Source: Lama guanicoe (Eukaryota). From it: 64,000 nucleotides of DNA. Below the pieces are notes generated by a model. That model did not search any database. It worked only from the letters and a program-made list of their open reading frames with translations, and was not told where the DNA came from. Of the stretch, positions 29,615-62,290 are shown one piece after another. The number at the start of each line of letters is the position of its first letter. Within the stretch, counting starts at the first letter, position 1. The translations under genes and the position numbers were made by a program. The DNA is taken from NCBI GenBank assembly GCA_013239625.1, contig MU056434.1:496001-560000 (forward strand). Direction: 5' to 3'.

Positions 29615-31187
29615 CTAAAACCAAATAACAAAAGTTAGTAACGAATGAAGCGTCAAGCAGGTAACCCACGCCAAATACGAGGCACCCTGCAGTCCCAGCC
29701 CACCAGGGAGCCCCGCCAGACACTGGCCAGCCCTGGACGCCCGCATGGTTATGGCATCTTCACAACTACCTAGCGGGCATTGTGCTGAGGATGAAATGGA
29801 GGCTTAAGAGGCCAGGAAATGTGCACCAATGAGTCCCCAAGAGTAAGTGGTGAGGCCTGGATCAGAGGCCGGCTTGACCAGCTGTGTGGTCCCCCTGCAG
29901 CCAGGTCCACGCACGGGAACTGCTGACCCCGGCCTCTGAACCCTCCTGGTTCCACAGGACCAGCTCCAGGAGCCAGGCTTTAGGAACACGGTCTCCTGAC
30001 AGGAGAGACTGTCTCTGTCTGCCCCTCCCTGTTCACAGTCAAAAGTGTGAGCCCTGCAGGACCTCACTGAGTCAGGCTAAGGCCATGCCACGGGGCTACC
30101 CCCATGTAACCCAAGTGTCACTTCCGCGAAGGCTGGGAACACGTGCTGGGCTGAAAGGGGCAGGAGGAGCGGCAGATTCAGGTCAGGAATCCGCAGGCCA
30201 GACCAACAAGGAGGAGCCTGGTGCAGGTGGCCCAGAGGGACCTGATCCCAGTGAGCAGGCAGGAAGGGCCAGGGTTGCACGGGGCTGGGAGGACAGGAAC
30301 CAGAGGCGTGCAAGGCCCTGGGGCTGTGAGGCTCACATGGGGCACGCAGGAACACTGTGCTGACCATGAAGCAGGGTTTCAATTGTTTTAGCAACAAGGT
30401 CCAGGGTTGCAACAAAATCCTCCCAAGTCCAACAGGAAAAGATTAAAGTAGCAATGTTGTATGAAATTTACATTTTAAGTTACAATAGCTGATGATATAT
30501 GTTATCAGTACAGGTGATGGAAAGACAAGCCCATCTGGTGATGAAACCCTGAGATCAGGGTCCTGGGTGACCCTTCATCTGGGTCCACCTTGGCCGCCGA
30601 TCCATTCACTTGTTCAGTCGCTCACAGCTGGGAAAGTCCTGGCTCTCAGGACATTTCCATCAGGGCCCCAAAGGCACGGGGGTGGGGGACACACACACAA
30701 TCCTGAACTTGGGGCTCTGCTCCCTCCATGTCAAGATCAGGGGCTGAGGGTGAGGGGTGAGCACCCAGTGAGCCCAGCATGGCCTGGGAGCTCCGCCGGA
30801 GCCTGGTGGGTGGGCACCTGTCAGGGCCACAGGCTCGCGCCCCCCTGAGCAGACCCGAATGTGGGGAAAGGCTGGCGCAGGCTGACGACATTCCCGATCA
30901 AAGTCCAATGTGGGATGTCCCACATGGTCAGTAAACTATCAGCACGATATTTATCATGTTCACCTGCCAACAGAACATGCAGATGTGCATCTTTTCCTGC
31001 AGAATAAGCTTTAAAATGCTGAAACATTAAGTAAAACACAGTAAGGATGCAACATGTGCTGCATCTGAGGGGCCACCACCTCAGCCCCACCTGTGGCCCT
31101 GGCTCTGGGAGCACAGCACTGTCCTGACTGAGGGGCCACAGCAGGCGGGGCTGACAGTGCCTCCCTGAGGCCCAGCCACTCACTCAC

Positions 31188-31355
31188 CACGACGGTCACA
31201 GCTTTCCGGTGCCCGACGAAGTCCATGTTGGTCTTCCAGCCCTCCCGCTCAATGATCTGGGCAGTGGGGCCAGAGTTGTTCATGGCGTGTGCGGATACCA
31301 GGTAATGCCCGTCAGGTGACCAGCTGAGCCGCAACACGTGGGTCGTCCCTCCACA
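31188..31355 (-). CDS. HIRA: HIRA exon 8 (CGGTTHVLRLSWSPDGHYLVSAHAMNNSGPTAQIIEREGWKTNMDFVGHRKAVTVV)
   Basis: tttcag acceptor, gtgagt donor, 168 nt. Confidence 0.97.
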
Positions 31356-52309: not shown

Positions 52310-54639
52310 CCTTAGAGAAGAGGTCTTACCATCACCAAAGGCTGGAAAGACGAAGACCCAGAGCACACCCACCCCCAGTAGCTGCTTCCCCCTCGGCTTT
52401 CAACTTGCCCTCTCCAGGGCTTTCAACCTGCCCTCTCCAGCCACAGCCACAGGGAAAGTGCAGGGCTCGCTGGTCCTTCCCTCTCTGGACTCAGACACCA
52501 GAAAAAGTATGTTTGAGCTGAATAAGGAGTCAGGAGACAAGAATGCAGAGTTGGGAAGCCGGAAAGTGCAATGGTGCGCTCTCCAAAGCACCACACTCCT
52601 CTTGGTTTGTTAATCCCAAGTGCGGCCGGCAGTTTTCCTGCCCACCCCTCTCCCCACTCCAGGCAGCTCCTAACACCCATCAGTCTCTACGGGAGGCTCA
52701 GCAGTGATTCAGACCATCATTGTGTCCTTCAGGACAGCAGAAATTTATCCCCACAGCCCTGCCAAACACTCCATGGGACAGGGTGGATTTCAAGAGATTT
52801 TAAAAGAGAGGAAATTTGACAAAGAACAGGTTTTAAAGAGTCTCAATTGCTTTGATCACTGTCTATTAGGTTTCCAAAGCACTTTATAGCCTGGAGAGCC
52901 GTCTTCCTTCCCAAGAGAACACCGTAACTGGACCATGAAGACGGAGGGGCAGGTACCGCAGTTTCTGCTCTAGGATGGCAGAGAGGCCCCAGGCTCACTG
53001 CCCTGCCCACTCTGCCAGGCTGGGATGACTGGCTGCTGACCTGGTCACAGACTCTCACTCATTTGCACTTAAATAATTGCTTAAGCATCTTGACTGACTT
53101 ATGCTTACACAGCATAAAACTTGTGTTCTACATAGAAGTTTGCCATCAAGTGAGAAATTATAGGGCAGAAGAGAGACTGGAGAACGGTCCGCTACACACA
53201 CAAACTCATCCAGGCAAAGTGGTGCAAACTGCAAATTCCTTCAGATGCCACTCGCACAGCCGCAAACTCATAATACGACATTTCCTGATTCACCAGCACC
53301 ACGGTGTGTAACTACTGAATGTCTGCCCTGTTCTCCAGAGAAGAGCTCACACTCACGTCAGGAAATGCTCTTGGAGAGCAACACAGGAGAAGCGAAACTA
53401 GACCCCCGCGCTTCTGCTTTCACGCACAGTAAGTCTCGCTGTCTCTGTAGGTCAGGGCCACCTCAGCTCCCAGCTGTGCCGGCCCACATCATCAAGTGCC
53501 CGTTGTGTGGAAGGCACTGCCGACAGTGACAGAGAACACGGTGGCGAGTGCCCGGAGTGCACACTCACAGGAACAGAGCACATTCAGAGCAACTCAGGAG
53601 CAACGGTAACATCAGGAGAAAGCGACCTCACCCAGGCCTGAAAAATGAGGATGACGTCCTGCAGGAAACGGGACAGGGGAACACTGACTGAAGGAACAGA
53701 CAGAGGCGGAAAGTGTCCAGGGATCAAGTTCAAAACTTAAAAGCTACATGCTTCAGAAAAGCAAGACCATCCACTCCACTTGCTCTAAAAGAAAACCGTG
53801 GCTCCCTCTAGTCACACAGCCAAGTAGAAAAGAGGAACGAATCAGGGTGACCCTTTGCTATCAGCAGGCAGGCAGGCCAGCCAGCTGTGGGCCCTGGGTC
53901 GTTCCCATGGGCTTCAGCACTGTCAACAAGGAGATGGTGACTTTCTCCCCTCACCTCCTTGGGGAGCAAGTCCAACTCCTGCAGCAGGTGTGCAGACAAG
54001 ATGGAACTGTGACGAAACTGCTGGTTGCCACGGGTTTCACTGTATGAGTCTCTTCCCAACCAGAGGCCTGGATGAGTCTGTTTCCCAGGGTGTGCTTTGG
54101 AGCCCCTGCCACAGAGCTAAGGAAGACCCTCTTCCAGAACACACCTCTGCCCTATGGGCCTCAACTCAAGTCACCCAGATGCTCCAGCTCAGAGTGCACG
54201 TGGTGCCTTGGGCTGCAGCCACAGTCCCCACTGGAGGCACTGTCACCAGATCCAGCCCTTCCGCATGGTAGAGCATGCCCATGCCAGGTATGCACCCCAC
54301 AACTGAAGGGCCACGGCGGGGATTCCGGCCCGGTTTCACACACTGGACCACCCTGCACGACCCAGCCGGCTCCTAGGGCTGCTCCCCGGGGCCAGGCCGC
54401 GACCCTTGCTCGGCCCACGGGTGGGTGGCCGGGGGCGAGGGCGGACGTGGCCGCGGCCGGGCGGAGCACGTGCCCAGCTCCCTAGCTCCCCGCGCGAGGG
54501 CAGAGTCCGCTCCCGCTGCCGGGGCACCGGGCACCTGGCATCGGAGTCAGGCAGGCAGAGCCTGCGCGCGCCTCCCGCCCAGCTCTGGACCCCGGCCCGG
54601 CTGCGGGCTCGGCTCTCCGCTACCCCCGCGCGCACTCAC

Positions 54640-54676
54640 CATTGTGGTTGACCCAGGTCGGCTTCAGGAGCTTCAT
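54640..54676 (-). CDS. HIRA: HIRA coding exon 1 (MKLLKPTWVNHN-G)
   Basis: ATG at 54676 in context GAACAATGA; translates to the HIRA N-terminus; donor G|gtgagt; 37 nt. Confidence 0.97.
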
Positions 54677-54718
54677 TGTTCGGCCGCCGCCGCCGGGCTG
54701 AGGCGAGAGCCGCGTCCC

Positions 54719-54736
54719 TCAGCGCGCCCGAGCCAT
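54719..54736 (-). other. HIRA 5'UTR uORF2 (MARAR*)
   Basis: ATG GCT CGG GCG CGC TGA, context TCCATGG, stop 42 nt upstream of the main ATG. Confidence 0.75.
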
Positions 54737-54796
54737 GGAGCCGCCGCCGCCGCTGCCCGCGCCGCCCGCCCTCCGGCCGCCGCCCGCCCCGCGCTC

Positions 54797-54814
54797 TCAG
54801 CGCCGCCGCGCCAT
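54797..54814 (-). other. HIRA 5'UTR uORF1 (MARRR*)
   Basis: ATG GCG CGG CGG CGC TGA, strong Kozak (GAGATGG); assumes the TSS is upstream. Confidence 0.7.
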
Positions 54815-54830
54815 CTCCGGCCCGCGCCCC

Positions 54831-54890
54831 CCGCCGCCGCCGCCACAGCCGACCCCCGCGCTCGGCCGCCGCCGCCGCCGCCACAGCCGC
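54831..54890. repeat. Two copies of (CCG)n-CCACAGCCG in the HIRA leader
   Basis: ccgccgccgccgccacagccg at 54831-54851 and 54869-54889. Confidence 0.8.
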
Positions 54891-55597
54891 AGCCCCTGCC
54901 CCGCTCCTCCTCCGGCGGCTCCCGGGCAACGCCGGAAGTCACGGCGCGCACCTGCCAAACCGCCCCGGCGGGAAACCGCTCCCCGCGCGCACGGGCCGCC
55001 CGACTCCTCGGCCGGCCAGCGGGCGGGCAGGCGGGTCCGCCCCCCGGGGCCGTGAGCGAGGGGACGGCCGGCCGGGAGCAGGCGGGCGGGCGAGCAGGGT
55101 CAGGGGTGCGGAGGGCCGGCGGAGCCAGGCAGGGCGGCGCGGCGCGGACGGCCTCGCGGCTCCGCCCGCCGGTGTCGAGCAGACTAATTAACTGGCTTCC
55201 GCCTGCCCGAGCGCGCGTTCATTGGGCGCCCGCGAGCGCAGGCCACGTGCCGCTCGGGGTGCAGCCACCGCGGCCCTGGCTCGGACGCCGGCGGGAGAGC
55301 CGGCGCGAGCGGGCGCGCTTGCTGGACGGCCGGCTGCACTGCAGGCTCGGCCCTCGCGGGGCGCAGGCCGAGTCGCCTGGGAGCGGCCGGGGCAGCGCCG
55401 GCGGGAATAAGGACCCCGGCCGGCGCGAGGTGCGAGGCACCGGGCGCGGGGGCGGGGCCACGTCGGGGGCGGGGCCAGGCGCGGCGGCCGGAACGCGGGA
55501 GCGCGGGGCGGCGCGGCGGCCGGACTGGTGAGCAACGCACGGCGGGCCTGGCCACCGAGGGGTGCGTGCCCGGAAGCGCCGTCGCCGACCCGGAGCC

Positions 55598-55650
55598 ATG
55601 GCGGCCGCGGCGCTGGGGGCGGCCTGGCGCGCTCTGCGCCCGCCCAGGAG
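55598..55650 (+). CDS. MRPL40: MRPL40 exon 1 (MAAAALGAAWRALRPPRR), mitochondrial presequence-like
   Basis: GCCATGG Kozak, gtgagt donor, 53 nt, Arg/Ala-rich with no acidic residues. Confidence 0.93.
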
Positions 55651-55817
55651 GTGAGTGCGGCCCGGCCGGGCGCCCAGGACGCGCGGGGACGCGGGTGAAG
55701 ACTCCCCATCGGCCTGGCGGCCTGACCCAGCAGTTACGAGGGCGTCATCACTGAGTCCTCCATTCCCAGCGGGCGGGCGGCGGAGTCAGGCACTTATTCA
55801 TGCGCCGTCTCTTCCAG

Positions 55818-55901
55818 GCTTCTGGGAATGTGGCCGGCGCAGACCAGGGACGCGCACCAGCGGGCTTCGCTGCTGTCCTTCTGGGGACTCGTGCCCATGA
55901 G
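55818..55901 (+). CDS. MRPL40: MRPL40 exon 2 ([28 protein letters not shown])
   Basis: cttccag acceptor, gtaagc donor, 84 nt. Confidence 0.94.
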
Positions 55902-56785
55902 GTAAGCCCGGCTGCGGGCCCCGCCTCAGTCGCCCGCGGGGACCCCACGCGCCAGGACGCCCAGCGCTCGGTTGGCAAAGGATCTCAGTTACATTCACGC
56001 AAAAGCTTTTTTCTGTCATTTCATACGAAACTCTGTTACTGCCTGTAATCAGAAAACAAAAACCAAGTGTAAAAGCGGCCTAAAGAAAAACTAGCCTTGG
56101 AGGGATTCGTGTGTGTTTTAAAGAGCCTAGCACTTTGATTTCTTGCTCCCTGGAGAGGTAGGACGATGTGTGAGGATTCGTTTTTCCACCTGGGATGCCG
56201 GATTCTTTCTAGGGATTTGATTCATGAAACTCAGTCTTGATACCGGAGGATTTGATGTGTTCTCAGTAGTTTATTATCATCATAGGAGATGTGTTCCTCA
56301 GAGTAAATCAAACTTTTGTCAGTGCTCGGGGATGGGGAAATTTGTTAAAAAATCTTGAAAAGTAAGAACTTGCCAGTCATTTTTACTAGACTTTCTTAGT
56401 CTTATCAAATCAACGTTATAAATCACAAATCCATTCAAGATCTGAATAATAAACTTCTAATTCATCTGTTTGGTATTTTCACTTTTCAGTGTTACCTCAA
56501 GGTGCCCCCGAACCCCAGTTGTAAAGATGAGCCCTTCCTTTAATTTATCCTGACATCCCATGAAGTTTCGCCACCCCTTCCTGGGGTGGCTGTGCCCACG
56601 GGGTTCTCAGCAGGACCCTCGGGATATGGTCTCCCTGCCACACTCAGCCTAGGAGTTCAGGCCCACACAGTTCCTTACCTAGTCGAGAGTTCAGTGTGCG
56701 TTTGGGGGCGCTTCATCGGGCGCCACGTCTCTGCGTGTTCACAAGACAGAAGAGCAACATATCTCATGTTTGCTTTACCCTTTAG

Positions 56786-56944
56786 AGCAGAGCCTCTGCG
56801 AAAGAAGAAAAAAGTTGATCCCAAAAAGGACCAGGCAGCAAAGGACCGCTTGAAAAAGAGGATCCGACGGCTGGAAAAGGCGAGCCAGGAGCTAATTCCC
56901 ATTGAGGACTTCATCACGCCAGTCAAGTTCTTGAACAAAACAAG
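56786..56944 (+). CDS. MRPL40: MRPL40 exon 3 ([53 protein letters not shown])
   Basis: tttag acceptor, gtgagg donor, 159 nt; mL40 signature. Confidence 0.96.
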
Positions 56945-57738
56945 GTGAGGGCCCTCCCTCTGGGAGGGGGGCCTCCAGCAGAGTTCTGTCACCTTCAGGG
57001 GTTCTGTTTGCACCTGTAATGGAAAGGGGTCATAGGTTCGGGCTGACTTGGCCTCGTCTGAGTCCTTTTCTCCTGGATTGTCTTGTGGGAGCTGGAGAAA
57101 GCCTTCTTGGGTTCAGGCTGCCCTTGCTGAGTGAGAGAGGGAAACTCAGCAATGGCTGATGAGCAGGGCAGGTGCCTGAGCGAGTTCGCACTGCTGCCCC
57201 TGCAAGAGGAGTCAGCTGTGACGGACGACCTGGGCCCGGGACTGCAGCTGCTGCCCCATCCTGATGGTAGGAGGCCATAGCCTCTTGCTCTCAGATGCAG
57301 ATGCTCATAGTTGGGGTGTGTCATGTGTGGGGTTGGTGGGGTTGCTGCCTTCCTGTAAGAAGCGCGTACCACTTATAAAGTAACACTTTGCCGTGAAAGT
57401 GGACACGCAGGTGTTTTTCTGGGCCTCCTGGACTGGTGTAGGCACTTGACTCATTGGGATTTTGCTGTCACTTTCATAACAGTGCCTGGCTCTTCCCAGA
57501 GCCCCTCTCAGCACAGGCAGCCCCACCTGGAGCCAAGGAGGTGCTTCTATTCTTTCTTGTCTCCACGTGAAGCAAACTGCACTGGTTCCTGGCGGCCGTG
57601 GCTGCTACTGCCACATTCAACATTCCATTCCTCAACTTGTCGCCAAGTTCCCTCCGTGTCTGGCAGTGGGGATGCTGGGGTGGCGTGAGGTTGGTCAGCG
57701 AGGCCAGTGCTCATGCCCTTGGTTTCTTGTGTTCCCAG

Positions 57739-58063
57739 ACAGCGGCCTCCGGCAGAGCTCCCCTTCGAGGAGAGCGAGCGCAGGGCCCTGCTTCTGAAGA
57801 AGTGGTCACTGTACAAGCAGCGGGAACATGAGGCGGAGAGGGATGCTGTCCGGTCCCTGCTCCAGGCCCAGCAGGAAGCTCTGCGGGAGCTGCAGCTCAC
57901 AGCCCCGGAGCTCCATGCTGAGGCCACCAAACGGGACCCTGGTCTGTTCCCCTTTGAGAGACAAGGACCAGATTACACGCCTCCCATCTCCAACTACCAG
58001 CCCCCAGAAGGCAGGTACCACGACATCACCAAAGTGTACACACAGGTGGAGTTCAAGAGGTAG
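57739..58063 (+). CDS. MRPL40: MRPL40 exon 4 CDS ([26 protein letters not shown]...[13 protein letters not shown])
   Basis: ttcccag acceptor, TAG stop; total CDS 621 nt = 206 aa. Confidence 0.96.
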
Positions 58064-58800: not shown

Positions 58801-60145
58801 GGATGTGATGCAGCCTCAAGGGGAGGGTCCGGGATCAGCAGGGAGCCATGTCTGCATCAGGGCCCCTTTACCACCTGAGTGCAAACCAACCAGGGAAACA
58901 GGCCCCTGTCCCTGCTCCCTGCGTGGGGTCCACTTTGGTTTAAGCACCAGACAAGCGCTTTTACTGGATCAGGAAGTCACCTGGGATCCTGAGTCCTGCA
59001 GCCTTGCCTCTTCTGCAGCCGCAGGCCAGCTGGCCAGCTGGCCTGCCACCCCCAGAATTGCAGCTTGGCGCTGCCCCCCATCCCCTGGGCACGGGCACTT
59101 GTTCCTCGTGTCCTGTGTGGCCCTTTCTTTGCCTTGGTGGGCTGCAACTGCCTCCTGGTCTGGGCCGACGCTGCGCCTCCCCCACCTCCCTGCCCATCAC
59201 AGGTGCTTTGGAAAGTCAGATTTTGTCCATTAGGTGTACAATCAACTCAGCGGGTCATGGCCAGCTGTTTCATTTTAACCTTTTATTTAGGAGTAATTAC
59301 AAGTTTCCAACAGGAGATTAGATATTACCACACAGGGCGGTCGGCGTGTGGCTCCCCCAGTATCACATCTTATACACCGTGTGTTCAGACTCCTGGCCGT
59401 GGCGGCCCGCGTCTGTCTTATCCCAGTGTGGTCCCATACAACTACCCCAAGGTCCAGGCACCTCAGGACATCTCCCAGCCCTGACCCTTGACCCCACAGC
59501 CTTCCCATCTCTGTATCATTTCATGGTATTATGTAATGGAACCACATGTGTGACCCTGTGGATCCTGAATGTGGCTCTGAGGGGTGGCACGTGCAGCAGA
59601 CCCAAGCTGCCGGCTCCCCACGGCGCAGGCCAGTGCAGTGCTGGGACACCCGTTCCAGTGACACGTGCAGTATGTCACAGGACACACCAGGTCACAACGT
59701 AAAACACTCGTTATCACAGGCTTGGTCCCAAGAGTCTGAAAGAATTTGCTCTTCCTTGTCACTCTGTCCATTTTCCTCACAGCTGATGTTTGAATGTTCA
59801 CATCTGTTCCCTCAACTCTGCTGGACTCTCTGGTCCTGTCATGGGTGCAGACACCAGGGGTGGACAGGAGAGGGTGTGGGAATATTCTCCAGAATGACGG
59901 TCATCAGTGGTGTGGAACCCACTGGGTATCCAAGAAGGAACAGGACTTCTAACGGGGCGTTGGGTGCTGGCAGCCCGTGGCCCTCGCCTGGCAGGGGCTC
60001 TGCGAGGGGTGCCCCTCAAGACTGTTGCCCTGGCTGCCGCTCCGGCACCTCCTGTTGCCCAGCCCTGTGCCAGGAAGCAGTGAGGAGCTGCTGCGATTCC
60101 AGGCACATGTGTGACTGCGAGGCTCCTGTGTCCCTGCCGGGGCTT

Positions 60146-61032
60146 CAGAGCAAGTAGGGCCCAGGCGGAGCCCTGGCAGCCCACCCTCTCCCCTCCTGCC
60201 CTCCGGCACACAGCCCCTGGGGTGGGGGACCCTGGCTCCCCTCCGCACACTCAGGTGGACACACAGGGCAGATGACCAGGGCCCCACGTGCACAGCCCCC
60301 ACTACTCCCAGGTACATAAGCAGTCAGAGGGCTCTAAGGCACCTGGTAGAGAAGCCACATGACAGGACAATTTGTTCTTTAATGCACACCCCTCTGAAGT
60401 GACAGATTACCCTGTGGCTGGGCTGGGGCTGTGGCGTGAGGGAGGGGCTCTTGTCAGTAACAGAGGCACCTCTGTCAGTTCACCTGCATCTATTTCACAA
60501 ACACCAACAGGAACACAAGCACGCAGAACTCTCTTCCTGCATGAGCATGAGGCCAGGTACCACATCGAACAATCTCAGCAGTTAACCTGGATTTAATTTT
60601 CAGCTTCTACCTGGACTCAAACGAGTGAAATGTCCTTTGATATACTCCACGTTTTCTAAAAGTGACCAGGGAAAGGAGGAGGGAAGAAGACCCACATTCC
60701 ATGTGTCCTGGGCTGAAGACCAAAGTTCACAAACCCAATTCACACAAGGGTGTGCATCCCATCCTGGAGCCATGAGCATCTCCAAAAGGCCCTGGGGGGC
60801 CCACCTGTGCTGCTGAGGGGCTGAGGGAGGGGCCTCAGCGGGGCCGGCACCGAACCAGAGCCAGGCGAGGCTACCTGGCCACCTTATTTTGCTCCTCGCA
60901 TGTCCACATGGGTCAGGGATACCTCTGGAGAGTTCACCCACGAGGTCCAGAGCAAGGAGGGCCCAGGTGGAGCCCTGGTAGCCCATCCTCTCCCCTCCTG
61001 CCCCCCAGAACGCAGCCCCTGGGGTGGGGGAC
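60146..61032. repeat. Dispersed 85-bp direct repeat (60146-60230 and 60948-61032)
   Basis: 77/85 identical by manual alignment, no indels. Confidence 0.92.
60378..60383 (-). terminator. Candidate C22orf39 poly(A) signal ATTAAA (alternatives at 60592-60597 ATTAAA and 59282-59287 AATAAA)
   Basis: Hexamer on the minus strand downstream of the stop; usage not determinable. Confidence 0.35.
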
Positions 61033-61226
61033 GATCCCCAGGGGAGCACAGCCAGCCTGACCACCTCCCGCAGGATCGGCAGTGCTGCCTGTGGCCTGGA
61101 AGATGTGCACTGGGTGCACCGGTTCAGGTGCGGCAGCAGGTAAGGCCAGAGGCGGGGCTCTCAGGGACCCACTGGATGGTTGAGGTCAATCACAGCGGTA
61201 GGGGTGTGAGACATACAGAGCGCTGG

Positions 61227-61478: not shown

Positions 61479-61994
61479 AATTACTAATCTCTTCCCATAT
61501 AGGCTGCAAACCATCTTCCCGATTTTCCATTTATCACGGACTTACCGTTCTCTCTCAAACATACCAGTCCTGCTGCCCCGTCCCGTGAAAACAACCCCTC
61601 ACTGCTTCCCCTCTCCAACAGCTCCAAGGCCTCACTGTGCCCTGGACTAGGATGAAGGAGCCAGGAGCACAGGGCTTTGTTCTCATCACTCCTGTATCCC
61701 CAAGAGCATCCTTCCCAAGCGGTATCTAGTAAACGAATGGACCAGAACCATCTCCTGACTGGTATCCCGCCCTGGCGGCAAGCACGCTTCCCAACACACG
61801 TGAAGGCCTGAACCTAACTCCTTTTTTAAGGCCTGCCGGGACTACCCTCACCCCGACCCCTCTGCAGCCGCCCCCTGCCCTCAGCGGTGGGCCGTCTCTG
61901 TCCCGGCGTCGGGCCCGGGGCTGGGTGATGCTACTCGGGCAGCTTCCCGGGCTCGGCAGAACCAACCCCTGCAGGCCAGTCCCCTGGGCCTCAC

Positions 61995-62162
61995 CTGGGC
62001 CTCGGCGCTGCGGCGCTCCTCCCACTCGCGGCAGCTGGCCAGGTCCCGCCGCCACTGCCCGCAGGCCGGCCGCTCTCCGTGGACGTAGTAGTGGCGCAGG
62101 AAGTGCCCGGCGCTGCAGCAGAGCTCCCACTCCGCGCGGTAGGCCTCGCACGGGCGCGGCGG
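61995..62162 (-). CDS. C22orf39: C22orf39 exon 2 (PPRPCEAYRAEWELCCSAGHFLRHYYVHGERPACGQWRRDLASCREWEERRSAEAQ)
   Basis: ctgcag acceptor, gtgagg donor, 168 nt; two CX9C-spaced Cys pairs. Confidence 0.93.
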
Positions 62163-62290
62163 CTGCAGGGACCAGGCGTGAGCAGGCGACCCGCAGCCCG
62201 CCCACCCCGCTCGCCCGGACCCGGTCACCACCCGCTAGCCTCGCTCAGCCTGGACCGAGTTATCGCCCGTCCCGTGGGCCCCGGGCTCAC

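Follow-up and report, generated by a model that had tools for sequence, protein, structure and literature searches.

The first coding exon of HIRA in Lama guanicoe is preceded by a G/C-rich leader that carries two upstream open reading frames (uORFs) of five codons each, and the question raised by this locus is whether the pair controls translation of the gene and, if so, by what kind of mechanism. The window analysed was a stretch of 64,000 nt (assembly GCA_013239625.1, contig MU056434.1), and all coordinates refer to it. HIRA was identified by its internal exon (31184-31355), which gave a 98-100% match to proteins named HIRA. The leader locus had 28 matches in the genome (2.05 billion bases), one of them full-length and the other 27 short G/C-rich pieces. 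The G+C content of the 266-nt leader (54942 to 54677) is 85%. HIRA is described as a loader of histone H3.3, and its gene falls inside the 22q11.2 deletion interval, so a conserved translational brake would provide a handle on its dosage. The features of the leader and its surroundings are collected in Table 1.

Table 1. Features of the HIRA leader and neighbouring genes in the Lama guanicoe window.
Feature	Coordinates	Strand	Details and basis
HIRA first coding exon, 37 nt, main ATG to splice donor	54640-54676	-	main ATG at 54676
Spacer of 42 nt between uORF2 and HIRA start, no stop, GGC run	54677-54718	-	sequence
uORF2, 5 codons, MARAR (stop), weak context (-3 T, +4 G)	54719-54736	-	orthologue of human uORF _3_195 (DENR-sensitive stop)
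G-quadruplex motif G3-N1-G3-N11-G3-N1-G3, three G doublets in central loop	54765-54789	-	sequence
uORF1, 5 codons, MARRR (stop), G at -3 and +4	54797-54814	-	orthologue of human uORF ENST00000263208_2_114
Two adjacent degenerate GGC-rich 38-nt copies, 79% identical, upstream of uORF1	54810-54885	.	repeat family D3
CTG in uORF1 frame, 78 nt upstream of uORF1, G at -3	54890-54892	-	frame-0 translation compared with human rows
HIRA transcription start region, presumed by orthology	54925-54945	-	human position 39 = 54892; spliced-transcript ORFs of other animals
Mitochondrial ribosomal protein gene, head to head with HIRA	55598-58063	+	Pfam MRP-L28 in exons 56544-56945 and 57689-58060
Exon with PANTS-like match	61881-62234	-	Pfam, E 3.9e-11

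Between 55221 and the main ATG, the minus strand contains exactly two ATGs, at 54814 and 54736. The original prediction, made from the sequence of this DNA alone, was that these are the sole ATGs of the leader, the first in strong and the second in weaker context, and that each opens a five-codon uORF. It proved correct, as did the frame offsets to the main ATG (138 and 60) and the stop-free spacers of 60 nt (uORF1 to uORF2) and 42 nt (uORF2 to the HIRA start). Both uORFs end in TGA, and the only other stop in 54942-54677 is at 54941, in a different frame. It had also been proposed that loss of either TGA would extend HIRA at its N-terminus. This applies to the uORF2 stop only, the loss of which would add 20 residues; with the uORF1 stop alone lost, reading runs on to the uORF2 stop, and the product is a 31-codon uORF and no extension of HIRA. 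A third in-frame ATG (55222, minus strand, 12 codons) occurs about 290 nt upstream of the presumed transcription start, inside a CCAAT box, and was discounted.

The transcription start was placed by comparison with other animals. Position 39 of the human transcript aligns with 54892, so the annotated human 5' end (position 1) corresponds to about 54930, upstream of both uORFs. In three ORFs from other animals (P0014, P0122 and P0123) reading continues through the orthologue of 54942, and as these span the exon 1-2 junction their source is spliced RNA containing the leader. By orthology, the HIRA leader of Lama guanicoe is probably transcribed from upstream of both uORFs. Words sampled from 54300-55700 were present in six RNA runs at 0.20-0.33, values that are uninformative on the transcription start site. 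The segment 54900-54945, around the presumed start, is near-invariant across relatives in alignment A1, exceeding the uORFs in this respect, and contains what we take to be an ETS-type CCGGAAGT-like site.

The human leader carries uORFs at matching places. For transcript ENST00000263208, the AUG uORFs recorded are one of 30 codons at position 39, one of five codons at 114 that has the same stop, and one of five codons at 195, and each of the three has 40S footprints at its stop (Bohlen et al. 2020, PMC7494916). The two five-codon starts are 81 nt apart in human and 78 nt apart in the window, and the final two codons and stop of the human uORF at 195 are identical to those of uORF2. A GENCODE Ribo-seq ORF, c22riboseqorf4, specifies a 30-residue peptide ending in MARRP (stop), with a start AUG that bears the label primatomorpha-young (Sandmann et al. 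2023, PMC10032668). The peptide aligns with the frame-0 translation of the window, such that the five C-terminal residues with the stop are orthologous to uORF1; initiation of the human ORF is 25 codons earlier, on an AUG where Lama guanicoe has CTG (54892). The supplements of that study yielded a single HIRA row, and the two five-codon ORFs were not seen among their small ORFs. Translation of the uORF1 frame has thus been shown for human by published Ribo-seq data. The CTG in the window sits where human has the young AUG of the 30-codon uORF, which may reflect gain of a start in primates or a near-cognate start in Lama guanicoe.

Conservation was assessed in 11 animal sequences (P0014 and ten further proteins), all of them off-frame gene-caller ORFs running across the HIRA leader; P0014 is identical to mouse-labelled HIRA over 428/428 residues. 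Back-translation was compatible with uORF2 in 11/11 and with uORF1 in the 9/9 that contain its stretch, where compatible is not equal to present, as an off-frame peptide determines the start and stop codons just in part of their bases. The sequences are few, and the patterns in them were located by motifs derived from those very proteins. P0123 and P0130, which are transcript- or contig-derived, have no uORF1 stretch, and their breakpoints fall in G/C-rich repeats; a real deletion could not be distinguished from a skip in assembly, reverse transcription or library preparation. A profile search of protein representatives returned no additional relative, and its fifth match, P0132 (E 9e-4, six stretches), was set aside as presumed low complexity. 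Taken with the two human five-codon uORFs, these counts uphold conservation of the pair.

Conservation does not extend to the encoded peptides. In a hand count of six frame-2 sequences, potentially invariant columns made up 4/4 of the start and stop columns, 1/8 of the inner columns and 27/53 overall, a difference to be read with the caution that the TG and GA of starts and stops are non-CpG and possibly slower-mutating, and the CpG-rich inner codons possibly faster. Residues 2-5 vary among the relatives. At residue 2, P0127 requires Val and P0129 requires Leu, and residue 5 is Arg in the window, Pro in human uORF1 and His/Tyr/Asp/Asn- or Cys-compatible elsewhere. The peptide pattern thought to be common to both uORFs accordingly breaks down, and comparison of human and the relatives revealed no conserved uORF peptide. 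Although both window uORFs and human uORF1 begin with Met-Ala-Arg, Ala and Arg are expected anyway from a leader of such base composition, and it is extremely improbable that MARxR peptides stall ribosomes or signal in a sequence-dependent manner.

The reading frame shared with HIRA showed a mixed picture. In the relatives, the distance from the uORF2 start to the main start varies from 54 to 66 nt and is a multiple of three in 11/11, while the distance from uORF1 to uORF2 is 81 nt in 5/9; in the remaining 4/9 it is 77 or 80 nt, which puts uORF1 out of frame. The 77-nt spacing of P0014 is weak on its own because of a frameshift just after exon 1, but P0122, P0124 and P0125 agree with it. The claim that the uORFs are in frame with HIRA is therefore valid for both in the window and for uORF2 in the relatives, but not for uORF1 generally. 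Retention of the uORF2 frame would suit a layout that serves an N-terminally extended HIRA through readthrough of the uORF2 stop. However, the changes in spacer length occur as indels within a triplet run, which preserve the frame automatically, and uORF1 is out of frame in four of the nine relatives that contain it. Among the 120 listed of 1,533 HIRA matches, the exon-1 motif was carried by 74 and was absent from 46; 73 of the 74 begin at the usual Met, although these are gene predictions and blind to readthrough. The single exception, the non-mammal-like P0112, has 17 extra N-terminal residues. Readthrough as the purpose of the layout is, in our judgement, highly improbable.

The likelihood of such a leader arising by chance was estimated from 100,000 dinucleotide shuffles of the 266 nt. 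At least two ATGs occurred in 28,473 shuffles, two uORFs of up to 10 codons in 55, two short in-frame uORFs in five and two of equal length in two, these criteria having been set after the pattern was seen. The pair had also been interpreted as a duplicated uORF-plus-spacer unit. The inner bases of uORF1 and uORF2 are identical at 9/12 positions, a level that random 12-mer pairs from the leader reach in about 3% of cases, and the repeat search found uORF-uORF similarity just as a 19-nt, 84% match over the uORFs themselves (family D5). Alignment of the two spacers scored 17.0, against 13.7 on average for 2,000 shuffles (p 0.245). As the spacers are no more similar than shuffled sequences, a duplicated unit is unsupported.

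Functional evidence comes from published studies of DENR. In HeLa DENR knockout cells, human HIRA is listed as a hit with a log2 translation efficiency (TE) change of -0.54 (rank 652 among transcripts; footprints -0.15, RNA +0.33), the values for comparison being -0.61 for CDK4 (rank 499, validated in that study) and -1.86 for ATF4 (PMC7494916). In the same data, 40S accumulation at the stop of uORF2 was 1.76, a hit (891 of the 9,982 stops were hits), and at the stop of uORF1 it was -0.25, not a hit, giving accumulation at one of the two distinct stops of the human HIRA uORFs. Mouse Hira is one of 223 transcripts down upon Denr knockdown in NIH3T3 cells (log2 TE -0.63, padj 0.099, narrowly within the FDR of 0.1; RNA +0.31, footprints -0.15) and is not down upon Eif2d knockdown (padj 0.79; Meurs et al. 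2025, PMC11790910). The other mouse Denr data set, also from NIH3T3, gave a non-significant -0.20 (padj 0.70; Castelo-Szekely et al. 2019, PMC6547434). The direction is the same in all three data sets, and the threshold of the respective paper was reached in two. The changes seen for HIRA are small, and a large part of the fall in TE reflects a rise in mRNA. A modest dependence of HIRA translation on DENR is partly supported, by the human hit, the 40S signal at uORF2 and, narrowly, one of the two mouse sets; the other mouse set and the uORF1 stop gave null results. The original prediction had named DENR/MCTS1 as often needed for reinitiation after short uORFs.

Leaders with DENR-MCTS1-dependent uORFs form a known class that includes ATF4, ARAF and CDK4 (Bohlen et al. 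2020; Meurs et al. 2025), within a mouse transcriptome in which 3,430 of 9,266 expressed transcripts have a translated uORF. The HIRA leader shares with them short AUG uORFs, a drop in translation of the main ORF without DENR that reached threshold in two of three data sets, 40S subunits at a uORF stop and a GCG within the last two codons, and human HIRA is itself listed in the tables, while the name has 0 occurrences in the main texts of PMC7494916 and PMC11790910. A uORF's final two codons contribute to DENR dependence (PMC7494916). In uORF2 the last sense codon is CGC, which is not among the DENR-dependent codons ATG, GCG and CTG, and GCG stands one codon earlier, third from last if the stop is included, like in ATF4 uORF2. 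HIRA differs from the class in the small size of the effect. The twin uORFs are nevertheless a real and conserved case of it.

The original prediction had likened the pair to the delayed-reinitiation modules of GCN4 and ATF4, in which case phosphorylation of eIF2-alpha would cause uORF2 to be skipped after uORF1, and HIRA translation would be kept or raised. Two short serial uORFs, the first in strong context, and dependence on DENR are features in common with that module. However, uORF2 is short, ends before the HIRA start and is in frame, so that it cannot block the main ORF by overlap, and an ATF4-type switch is not predicted from this anatomy. HIRA also shows no resistance to eIF2 repression: under arsenite, the TE of human HIRA was 0.14-fold (Z -0.97, compared with a threshold of 4 and a Z of 8.16 for ATF4), a drop like that of a typical mRNA (Andreev et al. 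2015, PMC4383229). This result covers one stress in one human cell line, and a low Z may, according to the authors, also mean low counts, HIRA having 566 control reads. Stress control of the GCN4/ATF4 type is very unlikely for this leader.

A further element, overlooked in the earlier annotation, is the G-quadruplex motif between the uORFs, which begins 7 nt past the uORF1 stop and ends 28 nt ahead of the uORF2 start. With its four G3 tracts and its short outer loops, the motif (54789-54765) is of the kind that defines RNA G-quadruplexes (rG4) in 5'-UTRs. An rG4 with an 11-nt central loop has been characterised in the human HIRA 5'-UTR (Jodoin et al. 2014, PMC4114690). Its loop lengths and three G doublets are the same as in the window, and 8 of the 9 numbered nucleotides match. 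The human sequence folds in a K+-dependent manner and represses translation, luciferase being almost 90% lower than with a G-to-A mutant. ViennaRNA with quadruplexes enabled preferred two-tier over three-tier folds for the window, and two-tier alternatives were also seen as competing forms of the human rG4 (PMC4114690). The text of that paper mentions neither uORFs nor upstream AUGs, and the placement of the rG4 between two uORFs is a mapping made here. Transcripts with rG4-associated uORFs controlled by DHX36 and DHX9 (Murat et al. 2018, PMC6307142) likewise have an rG4 beside upstream starts in a G/C-rich leader, but HIRA translation responded to depletion of neither helicase (p 0.62 and 0.69).

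The strength of the quadruplex effect brings up the possibility that the uORFs are conserved passengers, with promoter and G-quadruplex constraints holding the exon at this head-to-head promoter, the rG4 alone setting translation, and DENR acting indirectly. Mutation of the rG4 by itself shifts reporter output about tenfold (PMC4114690), the stretch upstream of uORF1 is the more invariant one, and the small DENR effects are accompanied by a rise in mRNA, all of which would fit. It is less easily reconciled with start and stop columns retained among variable inner columns, with 40S stalling at the uORF2 stop in the DENR knockout, or with the rarity of two short uORFs in the shuffles. We regard this explanation as unlikely, though it retains some weight. 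A coupled arrangement can also be envisaged, in which the quadruplex slows 40S subunits after uORF1, initiator tRNA is thereby reloaded before the weak uORF2 is reached, and the subunits are directed into the DENR-dependent exit. This gate is speculative and distinctly unlikely as a whole. If it were true, HIRA dosage would track DENR activity, for example through the mitotic phosphorylation of DENR, and in 22q11.2 deletion more HIRA would be made from the one allele left if a uORF start or the quadruplex were blocked.

The reading we favour, with a probability of roughly 0.6, is that the HIRA leader is a constitutive translational brake, exit from which via uORF2 is partly DENR-MCTS1-dependent, and not an eIF2-alpha switch. 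Many scanning ribosomes would initiate at uORF1 in its strong context and terminate after five codons, and scanning would then resume through the structured spacer. The weak uORF2 would capture some of these ribosomes, from which DENR-MCTS1 would clear the 40S subunit so that reinitiation could occur 42 nt further on, while the remaining ribosomes would leak past. Selection would retain the start, stop and length of each uORF and not the peptide, and the outcome would be a lower and DENR-sensitive level of HIRA. This path is a reconstruction that draws its DENR effects from human and mouse and its quadruplex effects from human; an influence of the leader on H3.3 deposition, as once suggested for this locus, is conjecture.

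The literature searched, which took in few subscription papers, yielded no text discussing the HIRA uORFs (the review PMC11818886 and PMC9316442 included, the latter a false lead) and no uORF-mutant HIRA reporter. Already in print, separately, are the catalogued uORF, the DENR table row and the characterised G-quadruplex; what is new is one joint map. With its elements catalogued individually and its uORFs undiscussed, HIRA is a little-discussed case within a known class. The class is common and the effects measured for HIRA are small, and the map presents a compact leader that is open to direct test.

Two other genes adjoin HIRA in the window. From synteny, the divergent gene at 55598-58063 is presumably MRPL40, and the exon at 61881-62234 presumably belongs to C22orf39. 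Some 920 nt separate the likely start of the former from the HIRA ATG, and one CpG island is common to both genes. Human MRPL40 was no DENR hit (PMC7494916). ORF translations from about 60000-60330 and 60830-61160 are similar, which suggests that a segment of about 300 nt was duplicated locally in the interval separating these two neighbours.
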